64,000 nucleotides of DNA, taken from assembly GCA_045636065.1 (NCBI GenBank), contig JAZTWW010000046.1, forward strand, positions 1,489 to 65,488. The letters are read 5' to 3'. Of this stretch, positions 24,038 through 36,617 are shown one piece after another. Made by a program: the position numbers and the translations under genes. Within the stretch, counting starts at the first letter, position 1, and every line of letters begins with the position of its first letter. Source of the DNA: Kiritimatiellia bacterium (lineage in GTDB: Bacteria; Verrucomicrobiota; Kiritimatiellia; RFP12; UBA1067). A model generated the notes under the pieces. It was not told the origin of the DNA. It did not search any database and saw only the letters and a program-made list of their open reading frames with translations.

Positions 24038-25390
24038 CTAAATGAGATATTGCCGCGCACATGTCAGCAATCGGAGTAGATTTTTAGAATTATCAGAAGT
24101 CCAAGCACTGCTTGAACTTTCTTGTTTTTGAATATTATTAATAAGATCTGCTAGTTCATAACGCAATCCATCTCCGACAAAAGAACAAAACACGCGTCTT
24201 GTTGTCTGTCCCATATCATTTCTAACCTCAAAATATTCGGTTTTCCACCAAGGGCTTGGAACATAAATATAACCAGTCGTTCCCGCCACAGTCAAGGCTC
24301 CCTCTGACTTTGCAGACAAGCCTACCGTGAAGATTCCTGTCGCGGAGGGATACTTGATCATACCCGTCGCAAAGGACTCAACGCGATCACTTGGGTCACG
24401 AAGCGGATGAATCGTCATTTGTGATGGGTCAGCCGGACCGAGCAACTTGATAATCGGACAGAGTACATACGAGGCAAGTTCAGATATCGCGCCACCACCC
24501 ATTGCCGGATCGTACTCACGAAGTGTCTTATCGAGCGTTAACTTAGTAAAGACGGCGTTCACTTGGCGAATCTTGCCAATCACGCCCCCCTTCGCCAAGT
24601 TGACAAGCCGTTTGAAGCATGGGGCAAAGGCTGTCTTAAGAGCCTCCTGAAGAACAACACCGTTTTTCGACGCCAAGGCATAGAGATCCTTTGCTTCTTC
24701 ATAGTCAAGCGTCAATGGTTTCTCGCACAGGACATGCTTCTTTGCCGTTAGCGCCTTACGCACATAGTCGGCATGGAATGGATGCGGTGTGGCAACATAG
24801 ACGACATCGACAGATTGCAACATCACGTCAAAATCTGAATATGCATCCTTAATCGAATGCTTCGCGGCAAACTCATCTGCGAGATTTCGCATTGGATTGC
24901 ATACGGCATCAAACACGATGCCTGACACAAATCGACTTTCGACGATAAACCGATTGGCTATTCTCCCACAGCCGACGATCCCACCGCGGAGAATGTGCCG
25001 CGAATCATTTCGGATCATTGTCGAGCTAATGCCCTTCGTTCGCGGCAGATAAACCACTTCGCACCATTCTTTCAGATAATCATACTTTCCGAGCCAGTCG
25101 TCGCCAATGACAAAAACATCTATGCCGTAGCGCTGTACGTCTTCAATCTTCTGCCCCTCATATTCTTCAACAAATATTACGTCTGCCATCCCACTATCCT
25201 TGACTTGCCCCATCCGTTCGATGAGACTTTGCACAACATTCAGCTTGCCGCGCTCACGATCGTAATTTTCGCTTGTGACCCCAACGAAGAGCTTCCCGCC
25301 CGTACCGCAATACATTCGTGCTCTTTCCAGAATGCGGCGATGCCCATCATGAAAGAAATCAAATGTTCCGTATGTTATCACATTAGCCAT
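24038..25390 (-). CDS. bifunctional TagD-like cytidylyltransferase / Gfo-Idh-MocA oxidoreductase fusion
   Basis: N-terminus ITYGTFDFFHDGH (HxGH CTase) followed by a Rossmann GIVGCGRIANRF and Gfo/Idh/MocA dehydrogenase body. ATG at 25390 with AAGGAG SD; ORF-track TTG start at 25408. Confidence 0.75.
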   Translation of the reverse strand: MANVITYGTFDFFHDGHRRILERARMYCGTGGKLFVGVTSENYDRERGKLNVVQSLIERMGQVKDSGMADVIFVEEYEGQKIEDVQRYGIDVFVIGDDWLGKYDYLKEWCEVVYLPRTKGISSTMIRNDSRHILRGGIVGCGRIANRFIVESRFVSGIVFDAVCNPMRNLADEFAAKHSIKDAYSDFDVMLQSVDVVYVATPHPFHADYVRKALTAKKHVLCEKPLTLDYEEAKDLYALASKNGVVLQEALKTAFAPCFKRLVNLAKGGVIGKIRQVNAVFTKLTLDKTLREYDPAMGGGAISELASYVLCPIIKLLGPADPSQMTIHPLRDPSDRVESFATGMIKYPSATGIFTVGLSAKSEGALTVAGTTGYIYVPSPWWKTEYFEVRNDMGQTTRRVFCSFVGDGLRYELADLINNIQKQESSSSAWTSDNSKNLLRLLTCARQYLI

Positions 25391-25533
25391 TCTTTCTACT
25401 CCTTTCAAACTCTAATTCGTAATGTTTAGCACCGCCAACACCCAGCAATATACGAGCAATCCTCATATGAGCGCATACAAACTCCGCCCATATGTGGCAA
25501 CAATGTTCAGAAATATGCGACGATTAGGGGACA

Positions 25534-27123: not shown

Positions 27124-27671
27124 GTCTTACCATATAAATAGAATTCTTTCCGGACTTTCCGCTACACTGGTAGCAGGCTTATATCCAAGTATGCGTAAAT
27201 ATTGGTTACGTTTCTACAAAATGTGATCTTCTCACAAATTACCGTCGCCGTACGGCGCTATAAAACAACCATGCACCATTTGCACAACTGACTATTCGAC
27301 AGTGTAGTATCCACCAGTTTCCTTGTTGCCACGACACCCGATTGAATCCAGTATCTTGGTGTGGACAGTTCACGCGAAAGTATAGCCTGGGATTTCCCTT
27401 TCAATGCAATCAAAGCTAATAGGGATAAGCCCTATTAAAGGCCTTCGCGCATGCCACCTTGCGGTATGACTTCATGTTCTGCAAAGTATTCTTGCCTGTG
27501 AAAATACTGTAGCGGCAGGGATGCCTTCTGTTTTGCCGGAGCGGAGTTCGTCAAGTCTTGTACGGCATTCCGCTAGCCACGCTGATTCAATTTCCAGATC
27601 AGTTGCGTTGCATGCAGGCATAAATCTGCGGTTTTCGTTCACGATGTTCGTCTCGCTCGGTTTGCTTGGGA

Positions 27672-28289
27672 CTACATAGTCCGAACGAATTCACGTACTT
27701 TTGATTCTATCTTCTGCTTGACTTCTTTCCAAGTCATGTGGACTAGCATCTCTGGCATTGGATCAGGCTCGGCGTCATCGAAATATGTCAACCCTCTCAA
27801 GGCAAAAGAAAACTCTGTAAGGGAATACTTGCTTTGATACAGGTCAAACATTTCCTTCAGCGAAAATCTGTCCAAGAGGAATGATATATCGACAAAATCC
27901 TTCTTTCTGCCTCGGTTGGCTGTAGCAGAGATCTTCATAGGTACGATATCAAGGATATCCGCAAGTTTCACGCCATCCTCAACAATTGGAGCTTTCAACC
28001 ATGGGTATGGATAATTCACAAAATCGACCTTGACCCCATCTACTCTTAGAAACTGCATCTGCCCATTATCTCTTCCTTCTGCGGAATGCCCAGAATTCAA
28101 AAGCAGTGAGCGAAATGAAATATTTTCATCAAAACTGCCAAAGAGATCAAGATCTATTGATTTTCTGTGTCCAAGAATCAGTGCAAGCGCAGTACCGCCG
28201 ACAAGACGGATGTCTGCGGCAGCAGGCAACGACTGGATATCCCTCAATATATCCAGGGTGCTGGCGAGGACTGTTTCTGTGTGTAGCAT
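27672..28289 (-). CDS. nucleotidyltransferase AbiEii/AbiGii-family toxin (type IV TA)
   Basis: N-terminal LVGGTALALILGHRKSIDLDLF motif of AbiEii-type nucleotidyltransferases. Confidence 0.7.
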   Translation of the reverse strand: MLHTETVLASTLDILRDIQSLPAAADIRLVGGTALALILGHRKSIDLDLFGSFDENISFRSLLLNSGHSAEGRDNGQMQFLRVDGVKVDFVNYPYPWLKAPIVEDGVKLADILDIVPMKISATANRGRKKDFVDISFLLDRFSLKEMFDLYQSKYSLTEFSFALRGLTYFDDAEPDPMPEMLVHMTWKEVKQKIESKVREFVRTM

Positions 28290-28540
28290 CTGAAGTTCTC
28301 TCTCGGTTCATTGGCTACGCAGGCGATAAAGGATAAGGCCATTGGTTCAAGGGTGCGCAAGGATTTGGCAGTATCTATCACTTCTGGAAGGCCGTATGTC
28401 TTGAATGCAAAGCGCAAGTCGTCAACCGTGCCCCTTTCGAGGACACGCTGGACGACGTACTTCCTGTGCTTCGCCAAATCCAAATCATTGGGATCGGCAT
28501 CCCAAAACAGGTTCGGCGAAAATGTAGATGTGTTGGACAT
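28244..28540 (-). CDS. putative cognate antitoxin (DUF6922/AbiEi-like small protein)
   Basis: MSNTSTFSPNLFWDADPNDLDLAKHRKYVVQRVLERG... overlaps the toxin start by ~46 nt. Preceded by the conserved promoter motif. ORF-track start 28657 rejected. Confidence 0.5.
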   Translation of the reverse strand: MSNTSTFSPNLFWDADPNDLDLAKHRKYVVQRVLERGTVDDLRFAFKTYGLPEVIDTAKSLRTLEPMALSFIACVANEPRENFRCYTQKQSSPAPWIY

Positions 28541-28566
28541 GGTTATCTGATTGGTTTGCATTCTCA

Positions 28567-28578
28567 AGTCTGTGTGTA
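28567..28578 (-). promoter_or_regulatory. extended -10-like promoter motif (TATGGTATAATAC)
   Basis: Plus-strand tattataccata ~27 nt upstream of the antitoxin ATG. Confidence 0.4.
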
Positions 28579-28885
28579 TTATACCATACTTTGCGACAAG
28601 GATGCAAGTGAGCAAATGTAAATAATAAAGGGCTATTTGGATACCGTTGGGGCGCAAGAAAAAGGTAGAGGGCTATATGGATACCGGTGTGGGAAAAGAA
28701 AAATGTGCAAAAGCTCCGCTATCGTCAAGTATGCGGGATGCTTGACGTCTAGTGCCAATTGTAGGATGGTTTGGCATTGGATTTGCCCGGGAACCGTTAG
28801 GTGGTTCAAGGGGCTAATATAATACCATTTTAGGTGGGGAAGTTCAAGTAGAATTAGTAGGGTTTTTCAGAGGGAGGGGATGGGG

Positions 28886-29250
28886 GCTGACGCGATTGGT
28901 GAGGGGACTTAATTATCGCTGACTGTTTGAATTGGCGCTGACGCGCGACCACGAAAATTTGCTTGTCGGGGTATTGGCGCTGACGCGATTGGGGGATGGA
29001 CTAAATAATGGCAAAAAGTTCGATATGGCGCTGACGCGCGACCACGAAAACTGCTTAAGGCGAATCGCGCCCACGGCGCGATTGCAGCGAGCGGGTCGCT
29101 TCCCTGCTTGAAGACCGCGACTGAACTCCCCTTCACTTGGGTCGACTGTAATCTGAGCGGTCTTCGCAGGAAGCGACTCGCTCACTGCAACCCTTCGGGT
29201 TCTCGCCTTAAGCAGACACGAAAACCGCCTTCGGCGGACACGAAAAGGCT
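28886..29250 (+). repeat. repeat element copy 1 (~300 bp, orientation A) with gcgctgacgcg sub-repeats
   Basis: Near-identical inverted copy at 30160-30450 and direct copy of that at 31290-31530. Shared termini cacgaaaaggctggaaa and ggcgctgacgcgcgaccacgaaaa. Confidence 0.7.
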
Positions 29251-29812
29251 GGAAATCATTTGCTTGGAATCTGCATAGCGGTACTTCAATGCTACAAAAA
29301 GAGCATGGGATTGGAAATGTTGGGCATGGTTGACTTGGATGCTGCAAAAAGAGCATAGCGGCACAATGGAGAATATCAAAACATGCCGCCAACTTCAGAT
29401 GTAGGGGAATAACTTGCTCACATGGCGCATGGGGCACAATGGGGTTTATCGATATATGCCGCCAACTTAGGCAGGGTGAGACGTAAATTAATTGCTTGTG
29501 GGGGAGTGGGTGCTGATGCGCAGACACGAAAAGGCTGGAAAATTTTTACTTGGCATGGGACTAGTGTCACTTCAATGCTGCAAAAAGAGCATGGCGGCAC
29601 AATGGAGTATATCGGAACATGCCGGTAACTTGGGATGTAGGTCAATTACTTGCTCTGATGGCGCATGCGGCACAATGGGGGTTATCGACATATGCCGCAA
29701 GCTTGAGGAACTCGAGCGTAGAGCAGAGTCGCAGGTTAATTGCTTGCTCCAAAGGCGCATGCGGCACGAGGGGGTCTATCGACATATGCCGCAAGCTTCG
29801 GGAGCACTAAGA
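29237..29812. repeat. two tandem ~285-bp repeat units with hairpin sub-repeats
   Basis: Units begin ...acacgaaaaggctggaaa. Each contains gctgcaaaaagagcatggcggcacaatggag... and ggcgcatgcggcacaatggggg ttatcgacatatgccgc (GCGGCA/TGCCGC stem). Confidence 0.65.
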
Positions 29813-29894
29813 GAATGCTCTCTTTCACACTGCAATAATGCTTTCTGTATCACGGTGCAATAAAGCGTTTTTTTACGGTTGAATAAAGCTTTCG

Positions 29895-29990
29895 GTCTAA
29901 GGCCCATTGTTCAACTACGGCCTTTTGGCATGCACCGAAATTAACCAAAAGTCCGATTTTGCCACCGGTTATCCGAAGATGGTTCTATTA
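29895..29990 (-). pseudogene. truncated 3' fragment of a GxxExxY-family gene
   Basis: About 95 bp with ~90% identity to the 3' end (30610-30705) of the intact GxxExxY gene. No upstream coding continuation. Confidence 0.6.
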
Positions 29991-30159
29991 TTTGCTCAAT
30001 GGTGGAAATACTATATACCCTTTTGCAACATGCACGTGATTATTTGCCCATTGGAGCAAACGCCATGCTCATTTGCAGCATGCAAGTCACCCCATGCTCA
30101 AGAGTTCCAGTAACATGCTCTTTTGCAGCATAACAGGTGATTGTTCGCAAATTCTAAGC

Positions 30160-30450
30160 AAGATTTTCCAGCTTTTTCGTGTCCGCCGAAGGCGGTTTTC
30201 TATCTGCTTAAGGCGAAAACCCGAAGGGTTGCCGGCTGTCGCGGAGCTTCCTGCGAAGGCCGAGCATATGCAAGTGATGGATCCGTGAAAGAGTTGATAC
30301 TGGCCTTCAAGCAGGGAAGCGACGCGACAGGCGCAATCGCGTCGCAGACGCGATTCGCCTTAAGCAGTTTTCGTGGTCGCGCGTCAGCGCAAATGCAAAC
30401 ATAAGCAGGTTTCGTGGTGGTCGGTTGCGCGTCAGCACCAATGCGGATAG
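30160..30450 (-). repeat. repeat element copy 2 (inverted relative to copy 1)
   Basis: Reverse complement aligns with 28930-29250. Internal hairpin gaatcgcgtc-tgc-gacgcgattc carries compensatory changes relative to copy 1. Confidence 0.7.
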
Positions 30451-30606
30451 TGCGATAAATTAGGTGTCGCTTACGGCACAATAGGGTCTATCGACATATG
30501 CCGCCAACTTAGGCAGGGTGAGAGAACACCTGCTTTCACGGTGATCCAAGCACGAGACTATCTATGATGACGATATTGTGTTTCTATAAAGCATTCTGTC
30601 CAAACA

Positions 30607-30987
30607 TCATCTCGCCCATTGTTCAACTACGGCCTTTGGGTATGCACCGAAATTGACCAGAAGTCCGAGCTTGCATCCGGTAATCCGAAGATAGTTCATC
30701 AGCTGCTTCCTATGCTCCTTTACCAGTTCGGACACGGCCTTAATTTCGACTATGATCTTGTCGTAACAGAAGAAGTCCGGTATATATGTCTTGTCGATTG
30801 GCGCACCTTTGTAGAATAAGCGCAATTCCTTCTTGGCCTCAAAAGGTATGCCCCGAAAGACAAACTCCCTTTCAAGGCATTGCTGATAGACCTCCTCAGC
30901 AAATCCGTTCCCCATCTCTGTGTAAACCTCAAATATCGCACCGCGTATGAGATAGCATTCATCTGGATATGTCATATTGTTTTTCAT
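30607..30987 (-). CDS. GxxExxY-family protein (PD-(D/E)XK-like)
   Basis: 126 aa with GNGFAEEVYQ (GxxExxY) and typical length. Flanked by direct copies 2 and 3 of the repeat element. Confidence 0.7.
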   Translation of the reverse strand: MKNNMTYPDECYLIRGAIFEVYTEMGNGFAEEVYQQCLEREFVFRGIPFEAKKELRLFYKGAPIDKTYIPDFFCYDKIIVEIKAVSELVKEHRKQLMNYLRITGCKLGLLVNFGAYPKAVVEQWAR

Positions 30988-30993
30988 GACATG

Positions 30994-31005
30994 TATTATA
31001 CCAGA
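30994..31005 (-). promoter_or_regulatory. extended -10-like promoter motif (TCTGGTATAATAC)
   Basis: Plus-strand tattataccaga within ~10 nt of the GxxExxY ATG. Confidence 0.35.
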
Positions 31006-31184
31006 ATTTGACGCTTCTGCGCCAGCATTTTCGTTGCCAAAGAATCACCCCCCTCATGTCGTTAGCCCTCATACCTAATATTCCTTGAGTTGCTTCCATA
31101 ATGAGGCTCAAGATGATCCTTTGCTGCACATCAAATAAATGCAGGCATCTTGTGCTTCAAGCAAGTGTCCGCCCAATGGTGCAA

Positions 31185-31290
31185 ATACCATGCTCTTTTG
31201 CAGCATGCAAGTCACCCCATGCTCAAGAGTTCCAGTAACATGCTCATTTGCAGCATGACAGGTGATTGTTCGCAGATTGCAAGCAAGATT
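31185..31290. repeat. palindromic mini-hairpin cluster (CATGCTCnTTTGCAGCATG units)
   Basis: Three ~20-nt palindromic units. Same cluster in the same orientation at 30040-30140 and reverse-complement units (GCTGCAAAAAGAGCATG) in the opposite orientation at 29300-29600. Confidence 0.55.
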
Positions 31291-31530
31291 TTCCAGCTTT
31301 TTCGTGTCCGCCGAAGGCGGTTTTCTGTCTGCTTAAGGCGAAAACCCGAAGGGTTGCGGCTGTCGCGGAGCTTCCTGCGAAGGCCATGCACATGTAAAGT
31401 GGTGGATTAGTGAAAAGGTTGAAACTGGCCTTCAGGCAGGGAAGCGACGCGACAGGCGCAATCGCGTCGCAGACGCGATTCGCCTTAAGCAGTTTTCGTG
31501 GTCGCGCGTCAGCGCCATCTTGGATAATGC
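31290..31530 (-). repeat. repeat element copy 3 (same orientation as copy 2)
   Basis: ttccagctttttcgtgtccgccgaaggcgg...cagttttcgtggtcgcgcgtcagcgcc is nearly identical to 30160-30390. Confidence 0.7.
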
Positions 31531-31600
31531 ACAAACTAGGCGTACGAATCAAAGCGTGTTATGTTGCGCACAAAGCGGACCCTTCGGCAATCTCAAGTCT

Positions 31601-32338
31601 TCACTTCGCCTCTTTATCCCTAACCCAGACATGCGCCCCTGCGCCACCGACTTCAAACCTCTGTATGGCCCTGAGCATCTTGGAAAGCTGCGAATAGCCG
31701 TAGTTGCGGCTGTCGAAATCCGGGCGCTTCTTGCTTATCATGGATCCCAATGTAGAAAGCTGGCATTGCCCGCCCTCTCCGGAGGATTCCAATATGCATT
31801 GCGCAAGGAATTTTACGGTCTTGGGCGACAACGGCTTCTTCTGCGGTTGCGGCACCTGCGGTGAAGCAGGGACATCCACATTGGGCTTTGCCTCTATCTG
31901 AGGTTCAACAAGTATCTCCACATAAATGAATTTGTCGCATGCGGTTATGAATGGTCGGGGAGTCTTCTTCTCGCCAATGCCGTACACCTTCTTGCCTGAC
32001 TCCCGCAAGCGCAATGCCAGCGGAGTAAAGTCGCTGTCGCTTGAAACGATGACAAAGCCCTCAACCTTATCCTTATGAAGGATATCCATGGCCTCAATTA
32101 TCAATGCCGCATCAGTTGCGTTTTTCCCCTGCGTATAGGCATATTGCTGGATTGGGACTGCACCAATTTCAAGCAGCACTTCCTTCCACCCGACAAGCCG
32201 CCCCCAATCGCCATACGCGTGCTTTATCGTCGGGACGCCATACTTGGCGACTTCATCCATGATCGCCTTAAGGTTTGCCTTGGACGCATTGTCTGCATCA
32301 ATCAAAACCGCCAAACGCTGTTCACTATTCAATGACAT
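31601..32338 (-). CDS. NYN-domain protein with C-terminal OST-HTH/LOTUS-like domain
   Basis: N-terminal LAVLIDADNAS...VIVSSDSDFTPLALRLRE (NYN/LabA-like PIN fold). ATG overlaps upstream stop by 1 nt (TAATG). Confidence 0.7.
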   Translation of the reverse strand: MSLNSEQRLAVLIDADNASKANLKAIMDEVAKYGVPTIKHAYGDWGRLVGWKEVLLEIGAVPIQQYAYTQGKNATDAALIIEAMDILHKDKVEGFVIVSSDSDFTPLALRLRESGKKVYGIGEKKTPRPFITACDKFIYVEILVEPQIEAKPNVDVPASPQVPQPQKKPLSPKTVKFLAQCILESSGEGGQCQLSTLGSMISKKRPDFDSRNYGYSQLSKMLRAIQRFEVGGAGAHVWVRDKEAK

Positions 32339-34482
32339 TACTTATCTCCTGCGACGGGACAACTATCCCGCATATTTTCCTTCCAACAATTGACAATTGT
32401 CCCCTCTTCGCTCTTCCAGATCTCCAAACAATCGAAACGAATGGGGATGATCGATGGTGGGAGAGCTGATTCCGTGGGCGCTCCAATGGCATAGACTTTC
32501 TTTCCCTTTAGGGCCTCCTCGCCATATCGATTCAGAAATGAATGGACTGCACTTGCACTGGCGAAATGAACCGCATCAAAAATCGGCATTACAAGGGCTG
32601 TCCCCAAGCTAGATGGAACAGAGGCTGTCCCCGAATTGAGGTGGTAGATGGGGAGGTTGTCATATAGGACGATTTCATCGACTGAGGCGGCGCCGCAGGC
32701 GAGAAGAGCGCCTTTTACCGCTGTTGGGGCAAGGGAGCTTTTAAGCCGCAGGAAGCGCTTACCGGCGACCCTATCCATATTTCTACGAATTTCCGCATCA
32801 AATGGCGCAGTTCCGGCATTTATCGGTTGCAGCGGCTCACACCGTGCCACCCCTTCCGGCACACCGCATGACTTTTCTGACGGATAAAGGTCAGCCTTGA
32901 TACCATGCCTAAGAAGAGCTTCGGCCGTCTGAGCGCCTGTTGTCCATATTTCCGGAAGATGGCGGATATCCCCCTTCCAAGTCTCGAAAAAGCACCTTAC
33001 TGCCGCAGGGCTTGAAAGGATAAGCGCATCATACGAATGGACATCGACACCGTCTAAGGAATCTGACCTCGCCTCAAGTCGCACCATAGGCCACATTACG
33101 GCCCTGCCGCCAAAATCCTCAATCGCTGTCCTGATATGGGCTGAGACATCATTCGAGGCTGTCACGAGCACCCTAGCGCCCTTCAAAAGCCCGAGCCTTG
33201 GCCAGACGTGCCTTGTGCATGGTCCATTGAGCAACACGCCGGGCCTATCGTCTTCACGCTGGGTCCACCCTTTCACGATCTCTTCGCGCGGCCCCATTGC
33301 GTCATAGACCATTGTGCCGCCATCCATCACCTTCGTTCCCATAAAGGCGACTTCATTCTCTTCGCTGCCAGTCGAGCGCGGCGTAAACACCCTAAAGCCG
33401 CGCGCCTCGCCCCGCCTAGTAAGGAGCATGCCAGTTCCAGTGCTTGCCGCGAGAAGCGCACTCACTCCGGGCCTTACGACAAACGGTATGCCGTGCGCCT
33501 CCAAGGCATCAGTCTCCTCGGAAAGCCGCCCAAATAGGCCCGCATCGCCGCCTTTAAGCCGCACGACGCGCTTGAGCTTGCGCGCCTCGTCAAGGATGAG
33601 ACTAGTTATATCCTCCTGCCTAGCGCCCTTACCGCACCTCTTGCCAACATCAACCCACTCGGCGCGCGGCCTTAGCATGGCCTTCAAACCATGCGGAATC
33701 AGAGTGTCGGCAAGTATTATGTCAGCCTCGGCAACGTCGCGCGCGCAGCGTACTGTTATGGACTGGGCATCGCCCACGCCTGCGCTTGCGAACCTCACAG
33801 CCTTGACGAACATATCGCGCATCGAAACGAAACGCCTGTCCCCAAGCCTGAAGGCAACCGCAAGAACTCCCTGCCCTTCCGGCGGCTTGAGTTCCGCCTC
33901 TGGAATCGGGACAATATCAAATCGCGAAAGGTCGAGCCCAAGGCGGTTCAATCCGGCAAGCGCCATAATGGCGCCATCAAAGCGCCCTTCCTCTATCTGC
34001 GTAAGCCTTGCATCGACTGCGCCGCGCATGGGAAGAAGTTCAGCTTTGGGCCACCTCCTTTGTGCGTACTCCCTGCGCCTCGATGATGAAACCCCGATCC
34101 TTGCGCCATCGCGCAAAAGCCTGTCCGAAGCCCCCTTGAGCGACACTACGGCATCGCGCCTATCTTCGCGGCATGGAAGCCACATCCAGTCAAGGCCGTC
34201 CCTCGGCCTCTCCGGCATGTCTTTGGCGGAATGGATGGCGCAGTCAACCGCGCCCGAAAGAACGGCGTCATCAAGGTCGCGCGTGAAGAAATCACCTGCG
34301 GCCGACTCGATTGGAGTTAAGAGGTCACGGTCACCAGGGGTGGAAACAGGCAGAATATCCCAGTCGCTCCCAGGGCAACACCCCTTGAGAAAGGCGATCG
34401 CGCCCTCCGTCTGCCTTAGGGCAAGACGGCTTGAGCGCGTTCCAACCTTTATTGTTCCTAGCCTCTCCACAGGCGCCCCCAT
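32338..34482 (-). CDS. trifunctional HemC-CobA-HemD fusion: hydroxymethylbilane synthase / uroporphyrinogen-III C-methyltransferase / uroporphyrinogen-III synthase
   Basis: N-terminal TIKVGTRSSRLALRQTE (HemC), central tetrapyrrole-methylase region IILADTLIPHGL...LKGGDAGLFGR, and C-terminal HemD-like domain. ATG 34480-34482 overlaps upstream stop (TGATG). ORF track extends to 34524. Confidence 0.75.
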   Translation of the reverse strand: MGAPVERLGTIKVGTRSSRLALRQTEGAIAFLKGCCPGSDWDILPVSTPGDRDLLTPIESAAGDFFTRDLDDAVLSGAVDCAIHSAKDMPERPRDGLDWMWLPCREDRRDAVVSLKGASDRLLRDGARIGVSSSRRREYAQRRWPKAELLPMRGAVDARLTQIEEGRFDGAIMALAGLNRLGLDLSRFDIVPIPEAELKPPEGQGVLAVAFRLGDRRFVSMRDMFVKAVRFASAGVGDAQSITVRCARDVAEADIILADTLIPHGLKAMLRPRAEWVDVGKRCGKGARQEDITSLILDEARKLKRVVRLKGGDAGLFGRLSEETDALEAHGIPFVVRPGVSALLAASTGTGMLLTRRGEARGFRVFTPRSTGSEENEVAFMGTKVMDGGTMVYDAMGPREEIVKGWTQREDDRPGVLLNGPCTRHVWPRLGLLKGARVLVTASNDVSAHIRTAIEDFGGRAVMWPMVRLEARSDSLDGVDVHSYDALILSSPAAVRCFFETWKGDIRHLPEIWTTGAQTAEALLRHGIKADLYPSEKSCGVPEGVARCEPLQPINAGTAPFDAEIRRNMDRVAGKRFLRLKSSLAPTAVKGALLACGAASVDEIVLYDNLPIYHLNSGTASVPSSLGTALVMPIFDAVHFASASAVHSFLNRYGEEALKGKKVYAIGAPTESALPPSIIPIRFDCLEIWKSEEGTIVNCWKENMRDSCPVAGDK

Positions 34483-36617
34483 CAGAAGAGGACGCCTTTG
34501 CTCGGCTCTTCCTTGTCGTCCCACCAGGCGCCCTTTGTCGGGGATATGCGCGCAATGGCCTTGGTCGTCATCTGGAGCCCCTTTGCGGACGCCCCGCGCA
34601 CAGTCACCTGGTTCATGTCGAAGATCTGCTGGTGGATGCGCTGGTTCTTAGCGGGCTTGAACTTGACGTACAGGTTCTCGGGGCAGCCGCTCTGGAAGTA
34701 GAGGATCTTCCCCTTCTCGGGCGCAAGGCGGTACTCCTTGTTGTTTATCATGCCGCCGAACGTGAAGCGCTTGACGTACGTGAAGCCGTACATGGGCTCC
34801 TCGTACGCGCAGACGAACTCCTTGTCCCTGTCCTTCTCGGGGTTGAACACGAATACGTCAAGAAGGTCCTTGTCGACAAACTGCTTCTCTGGGGCCGGCA
34901 TCATCTTGTAGCGGCCGTCCTTCCAAACGAAGAGGAGCTTGTCGAGGCTGGAGCACTTGAACATCTCGTCGCCCGCCTTTATGCCGTAGCCGACGAAGTG
35001 GTTCTCCTTGTCGTGCCTGATGGAAAGCTCGCTTGCCGTTATGGCGCGCACGTCAACCGCCTTGAACGGCGTCTCCGACACCTTTGTGCACCTAGGATAC
35101 CTCTTCTGGTATGTCTTTATAAGGCCCTTAAGGTACTTTACGACATACGCCCTGAGGTGCGCAAGATCATCCTTTACGCTCGCCTCCTCGGCAACGATGT
35201 TCTCTATGTCCTTGCGGTTCTTGTCGATGTCGAACTGGGAGATGCGCCTGATGGGGATTTTAAGGAGTCTATCGACATCATCGTCGGTGACATCGCGTCT
35301 AAGCTCGGCCCTGAAAGGAATGAAGCCGGTCTTGACCGCCTTCTTGACGCCCTCCTCGGTCTTCTCCGTCTCGATCCTCTTGTAGATCCGCTCCTCGACG
35401 AAAATCCTGTCGAGCGTCCTTGCATGGAAGAGATCGTCAAGCTCGCCAAGCCTTATCTCAAGCTCGCGCTTTGTAAGGTCCATGAGGCGGGATGCGTTCT
35501 TCTCGAGTATCTGCGATACCGTCATCTCGCGCGGACGCCCCGCGTCCAGAACGACGGGCCTTGACGAAATGCTCTTTTCGCAGTTCGTGAAGGCGTAGAG
35601 CGCAGTGATGACCTTTTCCTGGCTCGCGCCAGTCTGCAGCTCAAGCTCTATCTCGACCTTTCCGCTTGTAAGGTCGTGAAGCTTCCTGACCTGCACCTTC
35701 TTCTTCTTGATCGCATCCTCGATCGACTCGGCGATGGAGTCGGTCGTTTCGCCCCAGGGAAGCTCCGTTATGACAAGCTTCGACTTCTCGCGCTTCTCAA
35801 TTACGGCCCTCACCTTGACCTTGCCAAGGCCATCCTGATACTCGCTCGCGTCCATTATGCCGCCGAGCTGGAAATCGGGGACGAGGCTGAACGGCTTCTT
35901 CTGGATGGCCGCGATCTCTGCCTCAAGAAGCTCGATGAAGTTGTGCGGGAGGATGCTCGTCGAAAGGCCGACGGCGATTCCGTCCGCGCCCAGCATAAGA
36001 AGAAGCGGGATCTTCGCCGGCAGCAGCACCGGCTCCTCGTTGCGCCCGTCGTAGCTCGGCGTGTAATCGGTAGTCTTCCTGTTGAAGACCTCCTTGCGCG
36101 CGAGCTCCGTAAGGCGGCACTCGATGTACCTTGACGCGGCGGCAGGCATCCCCGTATAGAGGTTGCCGAAATTTCCCTGCCCGTCGATGAGATACCCCTT
36201 CCCCTCGCCCCAGAGCTTGTTGGCGAGAACGACGAGCGCGTCGCTAATCGACGCATCGCCGTGCGGGTGGTACTGCATCGTGTGACCGACGATGTTCGCG
36301 ACCTTTGTGTACCTTCCGTCGTCCTTCTCGAAGAGAGCGTGCATTATGCGCCGCTGCACGGGCTTAAGGCCATCCTCAACTGCCGGTATGGCGCGCGAGC
36401 AGATGACATAGCCCGTATACTGGAGGAAGTTCCCGTCCATGAGGTTCCTCAGCGGCCCATCGCCGGTAAGTCCGACGGATGGCGGCGATGGAGCGGCCTC
36501 GGGGGCGGAGGACGGTTGTTCAGAAGCCGCGCCCGGCTCGGCTTCTGCCGGCGGGGCGGGTTTCTTCAAAGGCTCGAAAAGATCGCAGTCGTCAAATAGG
36601 CTTGGCGGTTCATCCAT
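34482..36617 (-). CDS. type IIA topoisomerase subunit A (GyrA/ParC family), short form
   Basis: Motifs DGLKPVQRRIMHAL and QYHPHGDASISDALV (YHPHGD). Pro/Ala-rich low-complexity N-terminus of ~50 aa. No adjacent B subunit. Confidence 0.75.
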   Translation of the reverse strand: MDEPPSLFDDCDLFEPLKKPAPPAEAEPGAASEQPSSAPEAAPSPPSVGLTGDGPLRNLMDGNFLQYTGYVICSRAIPAVEDGLKPVQRRIMHALFEKDDGRYTKVANIVGHTMQYHPHGDASISDALVVLANKLWGEGKGYLIDGQGNFGNLYTGMPAAASRYIECRLTELARKEVFNRKTTDYTPSYDGRNEEPVLLPAKIPLLLMLGADGIAVGLSTSILPHNFIELLEAEIAAIQKKPFSLVPDFQLGGIMDASEYQDGLGKVKVRAVIEKREKSKLVITELPWGETTDSIAESIEDAIKKKKVQVRKLHDLTSGKVEIELELQTGASQEKVITALYAFTNCEKSISSRPVVLDAGRPREMTVSQILEKNASRLMDLTKRELEIRLGELDDLFHARTLDRIFVEERIYKRIETEKTEEGVKKAVKTGFIPFRAELRRDVTDDDVDRLLKIPIRRISQFDIDKNRKDIENIVAEEASVKDDLAHLRAYVVKYLKGLIKTYQKRYPRCTKVSETPFKAVDVRAITASELSIRHDKENHFVGYGIKAGDEMFKCSSLDKLLFVWKDGRYKMMPAPEKQFVDKDLLDVFVFNPEKDRDKEFVCAYEEPMYGFTYVKRFTFGGMINNKEYRLAPEKGKILYFQSGCPENLYVKFKPAKNQRIHQQIFDMNQVTVRGASAKGLQMTTKAIARISPTKGAWWDDKEEPSKGVLF

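Follow-up and report, generated by a model that had tools for sequence, protein, structure and literature searches.

A GxxExxY element is found at positions 28876-31517 of a 64-kb stretch of DNA from a Kiritimatiellia bacterium (the window, meaning this whole stretch). The element contains three copies of a structured repeat, here called arms, one of them on the minus strand and two on the plus strand. A single real gene is present within it, at 30607-30987 on the minus strand. An earlier note made from the sequence had described the region as a non-coding repeat array containing a gene cassette. Our analysis describes it instead as one GxxExxY element in which the repeats are the arms of the gene itself. 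Loci fetched from other contigs (L001-L065) were used for comparison.

The three copies of approximately 300 bp reported in the earlier note were confirmed by reading of the sequence and by a repeat search of positions 28500-32000, and each copy was found to be larger than reported. Copy 1 extends over approximately 28876-29356 on the minus strand (given before as 28886-29250), copy 2 over 30046-30455 on the plus strand (30160-30450) and copy 3 over 31171-31517 on the plus strand (31290-31530). The reported inversion of copy 1 relative to copies 2 and 3 was also borne out by inverted matches in the repeat search and, as an example, 28933-28957 and 31493-31517 form a 25-nt inverted pair that is 100% complementary. 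Between copies 2 and 3, stretches of 187 and 119 nt match at 94%, and both are displaced by the same 1125 bp. The core motif CTGCTTAAGGCG was observed seven times compared with an expected 0.26 (six occurrences are exact, all inside the repeat region), and TTTTCGTG was observed ten times compared with an expected 2.7, with nine of the ten located inside the repeat region.

On the strand that carries the sequence TTTCGTG, the arm reads 5' to 3' toward the end of the element as boxes, hairpin(s), four-way junction and terminus. The first part of the arm consists of genome-specific ATGCTCnTTTGCAGCAT hairpins followed by a TTTTCGTG box, and a small GC hairpin CCGCCGAAGGCGG is located between the first and second TTTCGTG boxes. 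The four-way junction measures 165 nt and the whole arm 150-250 nt. The junction is formed by helices P1 (13-14 bp), P2 (CCCGAAGGG), P3, which is a long helix with a conserved AA/AG bulge on its 3' side ('TCAAG'), and P4 (6-8 bp). The arm is closed by a fixed 23-nt terminus, TTTTCGTGGTCGCGCGTCAGCGC, and the similarity between copies ends there.

The outer end of the left arm (28876-29050, minus strand) is made of two 93-bp units, each closed by the terminal motif, with copies of the terminal 23-mer at 28933-28957 and 29026-29050 and P4-like CCAATCGCGTCAGC motifs. The core of copy 1, comprising box, four-way junction (P1-P4) and 23-nt terminus, is located at 29027-29222 on the minus strand with a minimum free energy of -103 kcal/mol, and scores 90.8 bits (E-value 1e-22) against R1, the covariance model of the arm described below. 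Its leader (29217-29356, minus strand) contains a TTTTCGTG box, a CCGCCGAAGGCGG hairpin, a further box and two ATGCTCTTTTTGYAGCAT hairpins. Copies 2 and 3 have leaders composed of two ATGCTC hairpins, box, hairpin and box (30046-30196 and 31171-31321, plus strand), which are followed by cores with a four-way junction and 23-nt terminus at 30197-30391 (R1 71.8 bits, E-value 2e-17) and 31322-31517 (R1 76.0 bits, E-value 1.5e-18), also on the plus strand. The core of copy 3 forms the right end of the element. Copy 2 is followed by a degenerate second terminal motif (30410-30440) and one GGCAC...ATGCCG module, together spanning 30410-30515 on the plus strand.

Between copies 1 and 2, the centre of the element (29357-29810) is filled by a segmental duplication in two copies (offsets 286 and 236 bp). 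This segment had been described before as 285-bp tandem repeats, but a true tandem array is not supported by the program TRF, which made no call. The filler contains five GGCAC...ATGCCG hairpin modules and one further ATGCTC hairpin and, at 29510-29532 on the minus strand, a box fused to a terminus without a junction. Mini-hairpins had been said to recur in both orientations. The ATGCTCnTTTGCAGCAT hairpins number seven and follow the orientation of the arms. Of the GGCAC...ATGCCG modules (GGCAC and ATGCCG about 19 nt apart), all six copies (29360-29791 and 30475-30503) lie on the plus strand. Neither these modules nor the seven ATGCTCnTTTGCAGCAT hairpins were present in the scanned loci L001-L041 and they are apparently specific to this genome. 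Short tandem repeats were also observed at 28626-28705 (a 40-bp unit in two copies, 80% identity) and 29814-29863 (a 25-nt unit in two copies).

A truncated copy of the gene, previously placed at 29895-29990, was located as an 84-nt fragment of the 3' end at 29902-29985 (minus strand) with 88% identity to 30614-30697. The direct repeats occur in registers of 1125 bp and 712 bp, and these two registers define a tandem duplication of 1125 bp within the element, which covers arm, gene and downstream hairpin module and was followed by a deletion of approximately 410 bp in one gene copy. The deleted copy has lost the 5' two thirds of the gene. The proposed tie between the direct copies 2 and 3 and duplication of the GxxExxY gene is correct, as the two copies are themselves products of the 1125-bp duplication.

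The intact gene encodes a 126-aa protein that matches PF13366 (E-value 5e-40, 137 bits with a cut-off of 22) and TIGR04256 (1e-38, 132 bits with a cut-off of 35). The PD-(D/E)XK residues P70, D71, E81 and K83 do not vary in any of 42 homologues and the predicted fold has a predicted local distance difference test score (pLDDT) of 78. The protein search gave more than 1300 relatives, and the best 120 of these are 70-100% identical, with many located on contigs of about 1 kb. PADLOC did not assign the protein to a defence system, with a match to PDC-M36A (2e-4, over 52 residues) as the only one returned. A survey of the PD-(D/E)XK superfamily lists the function of GxxExxY/PDDEXK_3 as unknown, and a literature search for GxxExxY, PDDEXK_3 and intervening-sequence proteins likewise offered no assigned function. 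An extended -10-like motif, TGGTATAAT (30995-31003, minus strand), is located 7 nt upstream of the ATG of the gene, and the motif is found at this distance in L042, L043, L045, L024 and L065 too. The short distance implies a leaderless mRNA and, with its recurrence in several genomes, leaderless mRNAs in this lineage. Extended -10-like motifs of the form TGGTATAAT/TGCTATAAT are also present in the window at 28819-28827 and 28578-28586 on the minus strand.

Searches with the 23-mer identified 19 metagenome contigs or loci, and its 20-nt core was found in 22 stretches of species-representative genomes. Among the latter, carriers of the full structure are nearly all rumen or gut metagenome-assembled genomes (MAGs) labelled as Kiritimatiellae, Lentisphaerae or Verrucomicrobia, several with 3-5 matches each, and the number of arm copies per genome is apparently in the tens at most. 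The arms form a family that is specific to the Kiritimatiellae of gut and rumen. Two arm patterns gave no match among viral contigs, so nothing points to phage. The exact pattern of the P1 stem gave no match among genome contigs because P1 covaries between copies. No relevant match was obtained from Rfam at gathering or permissive thresholds, where the sole match in the window was a tRNA at 57.6 kb and the best match within 28000-32500 had an E-value of 0.56. In addition, no description of this element was found in Rfam or in the literature on Kiritimatiellae repeats. As far as Rfam and the searchable literature go, this family of four-way-junction arms is previously undescribed.

Across the loci, the boxes and the 23-mer are identical, whereas the junction stems are wholly different in sequence with their geometry kept. 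An initial treatment of 27 copies with MAFFT and RNAalifold recovered only 16 pairs because a sequence alignment is not a structural one, and it was replaced by R1, which was seeded on one arm subfamily. R1 gave 40 strong matches, with the copies in the window scoring 72-91 bits. In the R1 alignment 91.9% of the cells are paired, compared with 57% in shuffled sequences and 33-37% when the partners were slid. Fitting of the alignment to the model favours pairing, and the slid controls and independent single-sequence folds concur. Changes on both sides were observed for 49 of the 51 pairs, and the covariation score is 0.78 versus 0.18. The compensatory substitution that had been noticed in a hairpin is real and was located in helix P4, and a total of 4-5 double compensatory changes separate copy 1 from copies 2 and 3. 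The suggestion of selection on secondary structure is therefore borne out by very strong covariation in 40 copies from many genomes. The earlier note had also considered that the element might be unique to this locus with no covariation elsewhere, which is contradicted by the presence of arms with covarying stems in dozens of contigs.

The structural selection acts on one strand. Copy 1 (29020-29260) folds far better than its shuffles, with z-scores of -9.9 and -8.6 on the two strands. The TTTCGTG strand, when folded alone, was more stable than its complement in all 37 copies by a mean of 7.9 kcal/mol. Triloops on the sense strand are GNA in 39 of 51 cases (GAA 32 times) and tetraloops are GNNA in 38 of 50 cases, while neither was observed on the antisense strand. 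Mismatched cells of the alignment are G-A/A-G in 79 cases and C-T/T-C in 13, and G-U/U-G was counted in 47 cells and A-C/C-A in 28. This bias of stability, loops and mismatches shows that one defined strand is under selection. The C-GAA-G loop is a classic and very stable DNA mini-hairpin. As such loops dominate and GNRA forms only 15 of the 50 tetraloops, we lean slightly toward single-stranded DNA over RNA as the molecule that folds.

Arms adjoin the GxxExxY gene in all 17 loci (R1 search) on the contigs that were fetched via four close GxxExxY homologues, and this GxxExxY clade is strictly linked to the arms. As the clearest example, L065 carries a solitary 856-bp element that separates two genes of a glycan-use cluster running in the same direction, and its two arms, which bracket the gene, are the only ones in 20 kb. 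The order of its left half is 23-mer, junction, box-hairpin-box-hairpin-box, extended -10 promoter, leaderless ATG and GxxExxY, and the gene is followed by box-hairpin-box-hairpin-box, junction and 23-mer. With L065 as the template, 28876-31517 of the window was read as one element with the perfect 25-nt inverted pair as its two ends. The topology of the window, arm(-), arm(+), GxxExxY(-), arm(+), is found again with a different junction subfamily in L024, which comes from a sheep-ileum Kiritimatiellae MAG.

Arms also occur as gene-less pairs scattered in intergenic regions. The usual arrangement is a divergent pair of arms 90-350 bp apart, where the two 23-mers face outward and serve as the terminal inverted repeats of a non-coding unit of 0.1-0.65 kb. 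Inverted termini of 23-25 nt are common to the window, L065 with its gene and the gene-less pairs of L005, L011, L013, L015, L022 and L032. One and the same arm-pair unit was found within unrelated flanks, and the homology between copies stops exactly at the 23-mer. The REP/MITE-like character proposed before (the repetitive extragenic palindrome, REP, and the miniature inverted-repeat transposable element, MITE) is backed by these inverted termini, by the dispersal to many unrelated loci and by the gene-less derivatives.

The arms differ between strains. The flank is the same but the junction subfamily differs in the comparisons of L011/L012 with L014, L017 with L022a, and L013 with L015, and modules between boxes are missing in L003, L004, L009, L026 and at 29510-29532 of the window. 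L019 and L047 differ by a 1160-bp indel that contains GxxExxY with arms, and one arm is in the opposite orientation. In L013 and L015 the centre is inverted relative to the flanking genes. The members of each of these two pairs of loci differ in orientation but also in arm type. On comparison of these sequences, the arms appear to participate in inversions and deletions at other loci. Genes located beside the arms elsewhere include parts of toxin-antitoxin systems, a C5 methylase, an HU-like gene and sugar-nucleotide genes. In a single case (L004, 3862-4731), an open reading frame (ORF) for an IS200-like Y1 transposase was seen about 2.6 kb from a junction-less element, to which it is not adjacent.

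From this anatomy, linkage and dispersal we consider it about an even chance that 28876-31517 is a small selfish element consisting of a GxxExxY nuclease gene and inverted folded arms, with the gene-less pairs as derivatives and with the nuclease, possibly together with a recombinase, acting at the box/terminus. The mobility of the element and the role of the nuclease are what we infer here. By analogy, the gene-less arm pairs look like what MITEs are to insertion sequences (IS), or what REPs are to the gene of the REP-associated tyrosine transposase (RAYT). In such an element, the strand that ends 3' at each terminus would fold, either as single-stranded DNA or as an outward transcript, and 5' resection following a cut at the end of the element could expose the folding strand. 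The nuclease, perhaps with a conserved tyrosine recombinase, would then recognise the box/terminus beside the fold, and cutting or recombination at this position may drive copying, module swapping, inversion and deletion.

Several points weigh against a selfish element of this kind. Neither activity nor movement was observed, a nuclease on its own is unable to join DNA, and no known transposase is similar to GxxExxY. Target-site duplications are absent at the ends of L005, L011, L015, L022b, L032 and L065. No clean empty site was found either: SSF transporter orthologues occur in related species without the element, but this comparison failed because synteny breaks downstream in those species, where the downstream genes differ as well. 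The termini point outward from the gene in L065, the window and L024 but inward in L042-L047 and L050-L055, so no one simple mechanism covers both arrangements. For most of the arms identified with the 23-mer, the few kb that were fetched contain no GxxExxY gene, and the gene could therefore be a frequent passenger. The small hairpins with T runs fit terminators too, and arms that read toward gene starts fit a regulatory RNA or a promoter-region element as well. Foldseek against the PDB gave only weak, generic matches to PD-(D/E)XK proteins with E-values of 0.01 or worse, and the idea of a Holliday-junction resolvase is consequently without structural support. The sequence search of the PDB returned only T7 endonuclease I, which is non-significant (E-value 0.66).

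The rival explanations and the selfish element are not mutually exclusive. The arms might be cis-acting structured RNA, such as a leader, insulator, tandem terminator or small non-coding RNA transcribed outward from the centre of the arm pair, which we regard as rather unlikely. The covariation and the strand-specific GNNA and GNA loops suit a folded transcript, although the C-GAA-G triloops dominate among the loops, GNRA tetraloops are infrequent and no Rfam family matches. The CCGCCGAAGGCGG hairpins with TTTT scored as terminator-like and P1 also has TTTT directly after it, but the calls total 4 compared with 4.3 in shuffled sequences, and the T run after the CCGCCGAAGGCGG hairpin is just 3-4 nt long and is itself inside a conserved box. 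An arm points to the start of the next gene roughly twice as frequently as it points to the end of one (approximately 17 versus 8 in our tally from the ORF list). Several genes come after the 23-mer and a C/A-rich leader of 60-70 nt with no promoter between, whereas an extended -10 promoter located downstream of the arm at several loci places the arm outside that transcript. Downstream of the arms we also noticed NusG-like genes in L019 and L047, a sugar-nucleotide dehydratase-like gene in L024 and, downstream of arm 1 in the window, the sugar-biosynthesis-like 24038-25408. One possibility is a termination/antitermination module that works with the NusG-like protein encoded beside some copies, with GxxExxY as merely one accessory gene. 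However, DNA elements typically show such inverted symmetry, in which both ends carry the same 23-nt terminus. In addition, homology stops exactly at the termini, one and the same unit is found in unrelated loci, and a regulatory RNA would leave the arms at all fetched genes of this GxxExxY clade unexplained.

With a similarly low probability, the arms and their 23-nt termini could be substrates of a tyrosine recombinase, as in invertons, shufflons or integron-like systems, which flips promoter-bearing pairs or swaps cassettes with GxxExxY as cargo. A gene of one tyrosine recombinase family (PF00589) stops at a distance of 2-6 bp from a 23-mer in L005/L007, L012, L019 and L047/L048, and the downstream genes vary behind the same integrase and element; no homologue of this integrase is present in the 64-kb window or in the 20 kb of L065. 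The Bacteroides capsule loci have a layout of recombinase plus invertible promoter. The order in L019 (integrase, arm pair, NusG-like gene) and in L047 (integrase, arms, GxxExxY, arms, NusG-like gene) resembles that layout of recombinase, inverted-repeat segment and NusG-like gene, but the arms are far longer and structured, and the window lacks a recombinase and a NusG-like gene. The inverted centre in L013/L015, the flipped arm between L019 and L047 and the missing target-site duplication would fit recombination, yet the arms differ wherever the orientation differs between strains, so that no clean flip is seen. The genes flanked by arms (GxxExxY, toxin-antitoxin, methylase and NusG-like genes) are typical cassette cargo, but the consensus boxes of integron attC sites are absent and the orientation of genes relative to the arms is not uniform. 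Recombination at the termini also leaves unexplained the need for a four-way junction that is kept while its sequence is free. As for an assembly artefact or a locus-specific duplication without wider meaning, the window is apparently metagenome-assembled, such repeats can be mis-assembled and copies 2 and 3 are 94% identical. This reading is nevertheless extremely improbable and already contradicted by the comparative data, because dozens of contigs and MAGs, independent of one another and drawn from different samples, show the same architecture with different stem sequences, and L024 shows the same topology independently.

When compared with known systems, the putative selfish element appears to work most like the REP/RAYT or IS/MITE pairs. 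As in REP/RAYT systems, one nuclease-type gene lies between inverted copies of a structured repeat, and further copies of this repeat are scattered through intergenic regions without the gene, frequently in inverted pairs. In both cases the structure of one strand matters and target-site duplication is absent. The differences are that the flanked gene is a PD-(D/E)XK GxxExxY gene (PF13366/TIGR04256) and not a Y1/HUH transposase, that the arms are modular, 150-250 nt long and built of covarying stems whereas a REP is a palindrome of 20-40 nt with a GTAG head, and that the copies apparently number tens per genome at most and not hundreds. Membership of REP/RAYT was rejected as no Y1/HUH gene is flanked and no short palindrome with a 5' tetranucleotide is present, the conserved box being TTTCGTG. 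The terminal inverted repeats of 23-25 nt, the gene-less short derivatives with shared ends, the intergenic insertion and the possible promoter or terminator effects are shared with IS/MITE pairs such as the Correia elements of Neisseria and the BOX elements of Streptococcus, and the modular build is shared with BOX. Unlike these, the element has no target-site duplication and no recognisable transposase, and the internal sequence of the arm varies freely with its pairing kept, which is unlike ends bound by a transposase. As the element lacks a Y1 gene, a target duplication and a known transposase, which define these pairs, it was assigned to neither. IS200/IS605 was also rejected since terminal inverted repeats are present and neither a TnpA nor a TnpB gene lies between the arms.

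As with the attC sites of integrons and the folded attP of the CTX phage, the site would be set by a one-strand DNA fold with small conserved boxes at its foot, a tyrosine recombinase lies beside some copies and small accessory genes lie between sites. However, the TTTCGTG boxes are direct on both sides of the fold in place of inverted RYYYAAC/GTTRRRY boxes, the fold is a four-way junction and not a bulged hairpin, the cargo orientation is not uniform and the window contains no integrase. An integron cassette array was rejected on the boxes of attC and on the absence of the element-associated integrase from the window. Free-standing homing endonucleases share with GxxExxY, as found in other phyla, a small nuclease gene with its own promoter between conserved genes; some PD-(D/E)XK members are known and I-Bth0305I was a weak fold match. 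Those genes differ in having no long structured inverted arms and no dispersed gene-less derivatives.

More broadly, a new class of small mobile elements might exist in which proteins of the very large GxxExxY family are the enzymes and each end is recognised in the form of a folded single strand, with dispersed gene-less repeats as non-autonomous derivatives and with transposase-free spread by cut-and-repair or with a host tyrosine recombinase; we put this forward as a tentative possibility. The ends in such a class would be a Holliday-junction-like four-way junction by short boxes here and inverted repeats of tandem boxes in other phyla. If true, GxxExxY would represent a nuclease-driven way of spreading that does not require a transposase. 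Plasmid and chromid records were searched with tblastn and eight GxxExxY loci were checked for inverted repeats, without matched control genes. In other phyla the genes sit between unrelated neighbours, several of which are housekeeping genes: radA and a FAD protein in Bacteroides finegoldii, ade and a guanylyltransferase in Bernardetia, and fabD and fabG in Sphingomonas. In three of the eight loci (Bacteroides, Bernardetia and Sphingomonas), the gene lies between inverted repeats of 25-30 nt that match at 86-92% and consist of short tandem boxes, and a 16-nt inverted pair surrounds it in Treponema. In B. finegoldii, the repeat that brackets the gene is also found as a gene-less pair between two other genes, and the repeat arms have matches in 12 more contig records of that assembly. 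These repeats are consistent with GxxExxY elements and non-autonomous derivatives beyond the Kiritimatiellae and we regard them as a lead. We also observed that the B. finegoldii repeat is 94% identical over 33 nt to a sequence of Gemmatirosa. The coordinates of the inverted repeats are 2431-2902 in L057, 1507-1690 in L058, 536-986 in L060 and 529-965 in L062.

GxxExxY/PDDEXK_3 genes are common across bacteria and often multicopy, and one clade is now tied to a defined nucleic-acid partner. The candidate partner consists of the boxes, hairpin, four-way junction and 23-mer, which provides a testable enzyme-substrate pair and a first clue to the role of the family. The structure is unusually well supported by covariation, yet it is absent from Rfam. 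The arms break metagenome assemblies, as seen from the many GxxExxY homologues on contigs of about 1 kb, and they mark variable regions with toxin-antitoxin, methylase and NusG-like genes in an abundant and poorly known rumen and gut lineage.

The GxxExxY element is located near the high-coordinate end of a block of lower GC content. Positions 3000-32000 of the window have a GC content of 38-54% (mostly 40-50%) with ORFs mainly on the minus strand, compared with 56-67% at 33000-64000. A cytidylyltransferase fused to a GFO/IDH oxidoreductase is encoded at 24038-25408, and this suggests that 3000-32000 may be a horizontally acquired sugar/polysaccharide cluster. The element is flanked by small accessory genes at 27472-28657 and 31601-32338, both on the minus strand, which code for an Unstab_antitox component, an AbiEii nucleotidyltransferase with a DUF6922 protein and a protein with NYN and OST-HTH domains. 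Further along, a single ORF of 728 aa at 32338-34524 on the minus strand combines porphobilinogen deaminase, tetrapyrrole methylase and uroporphyrinogen-III synthase domains.

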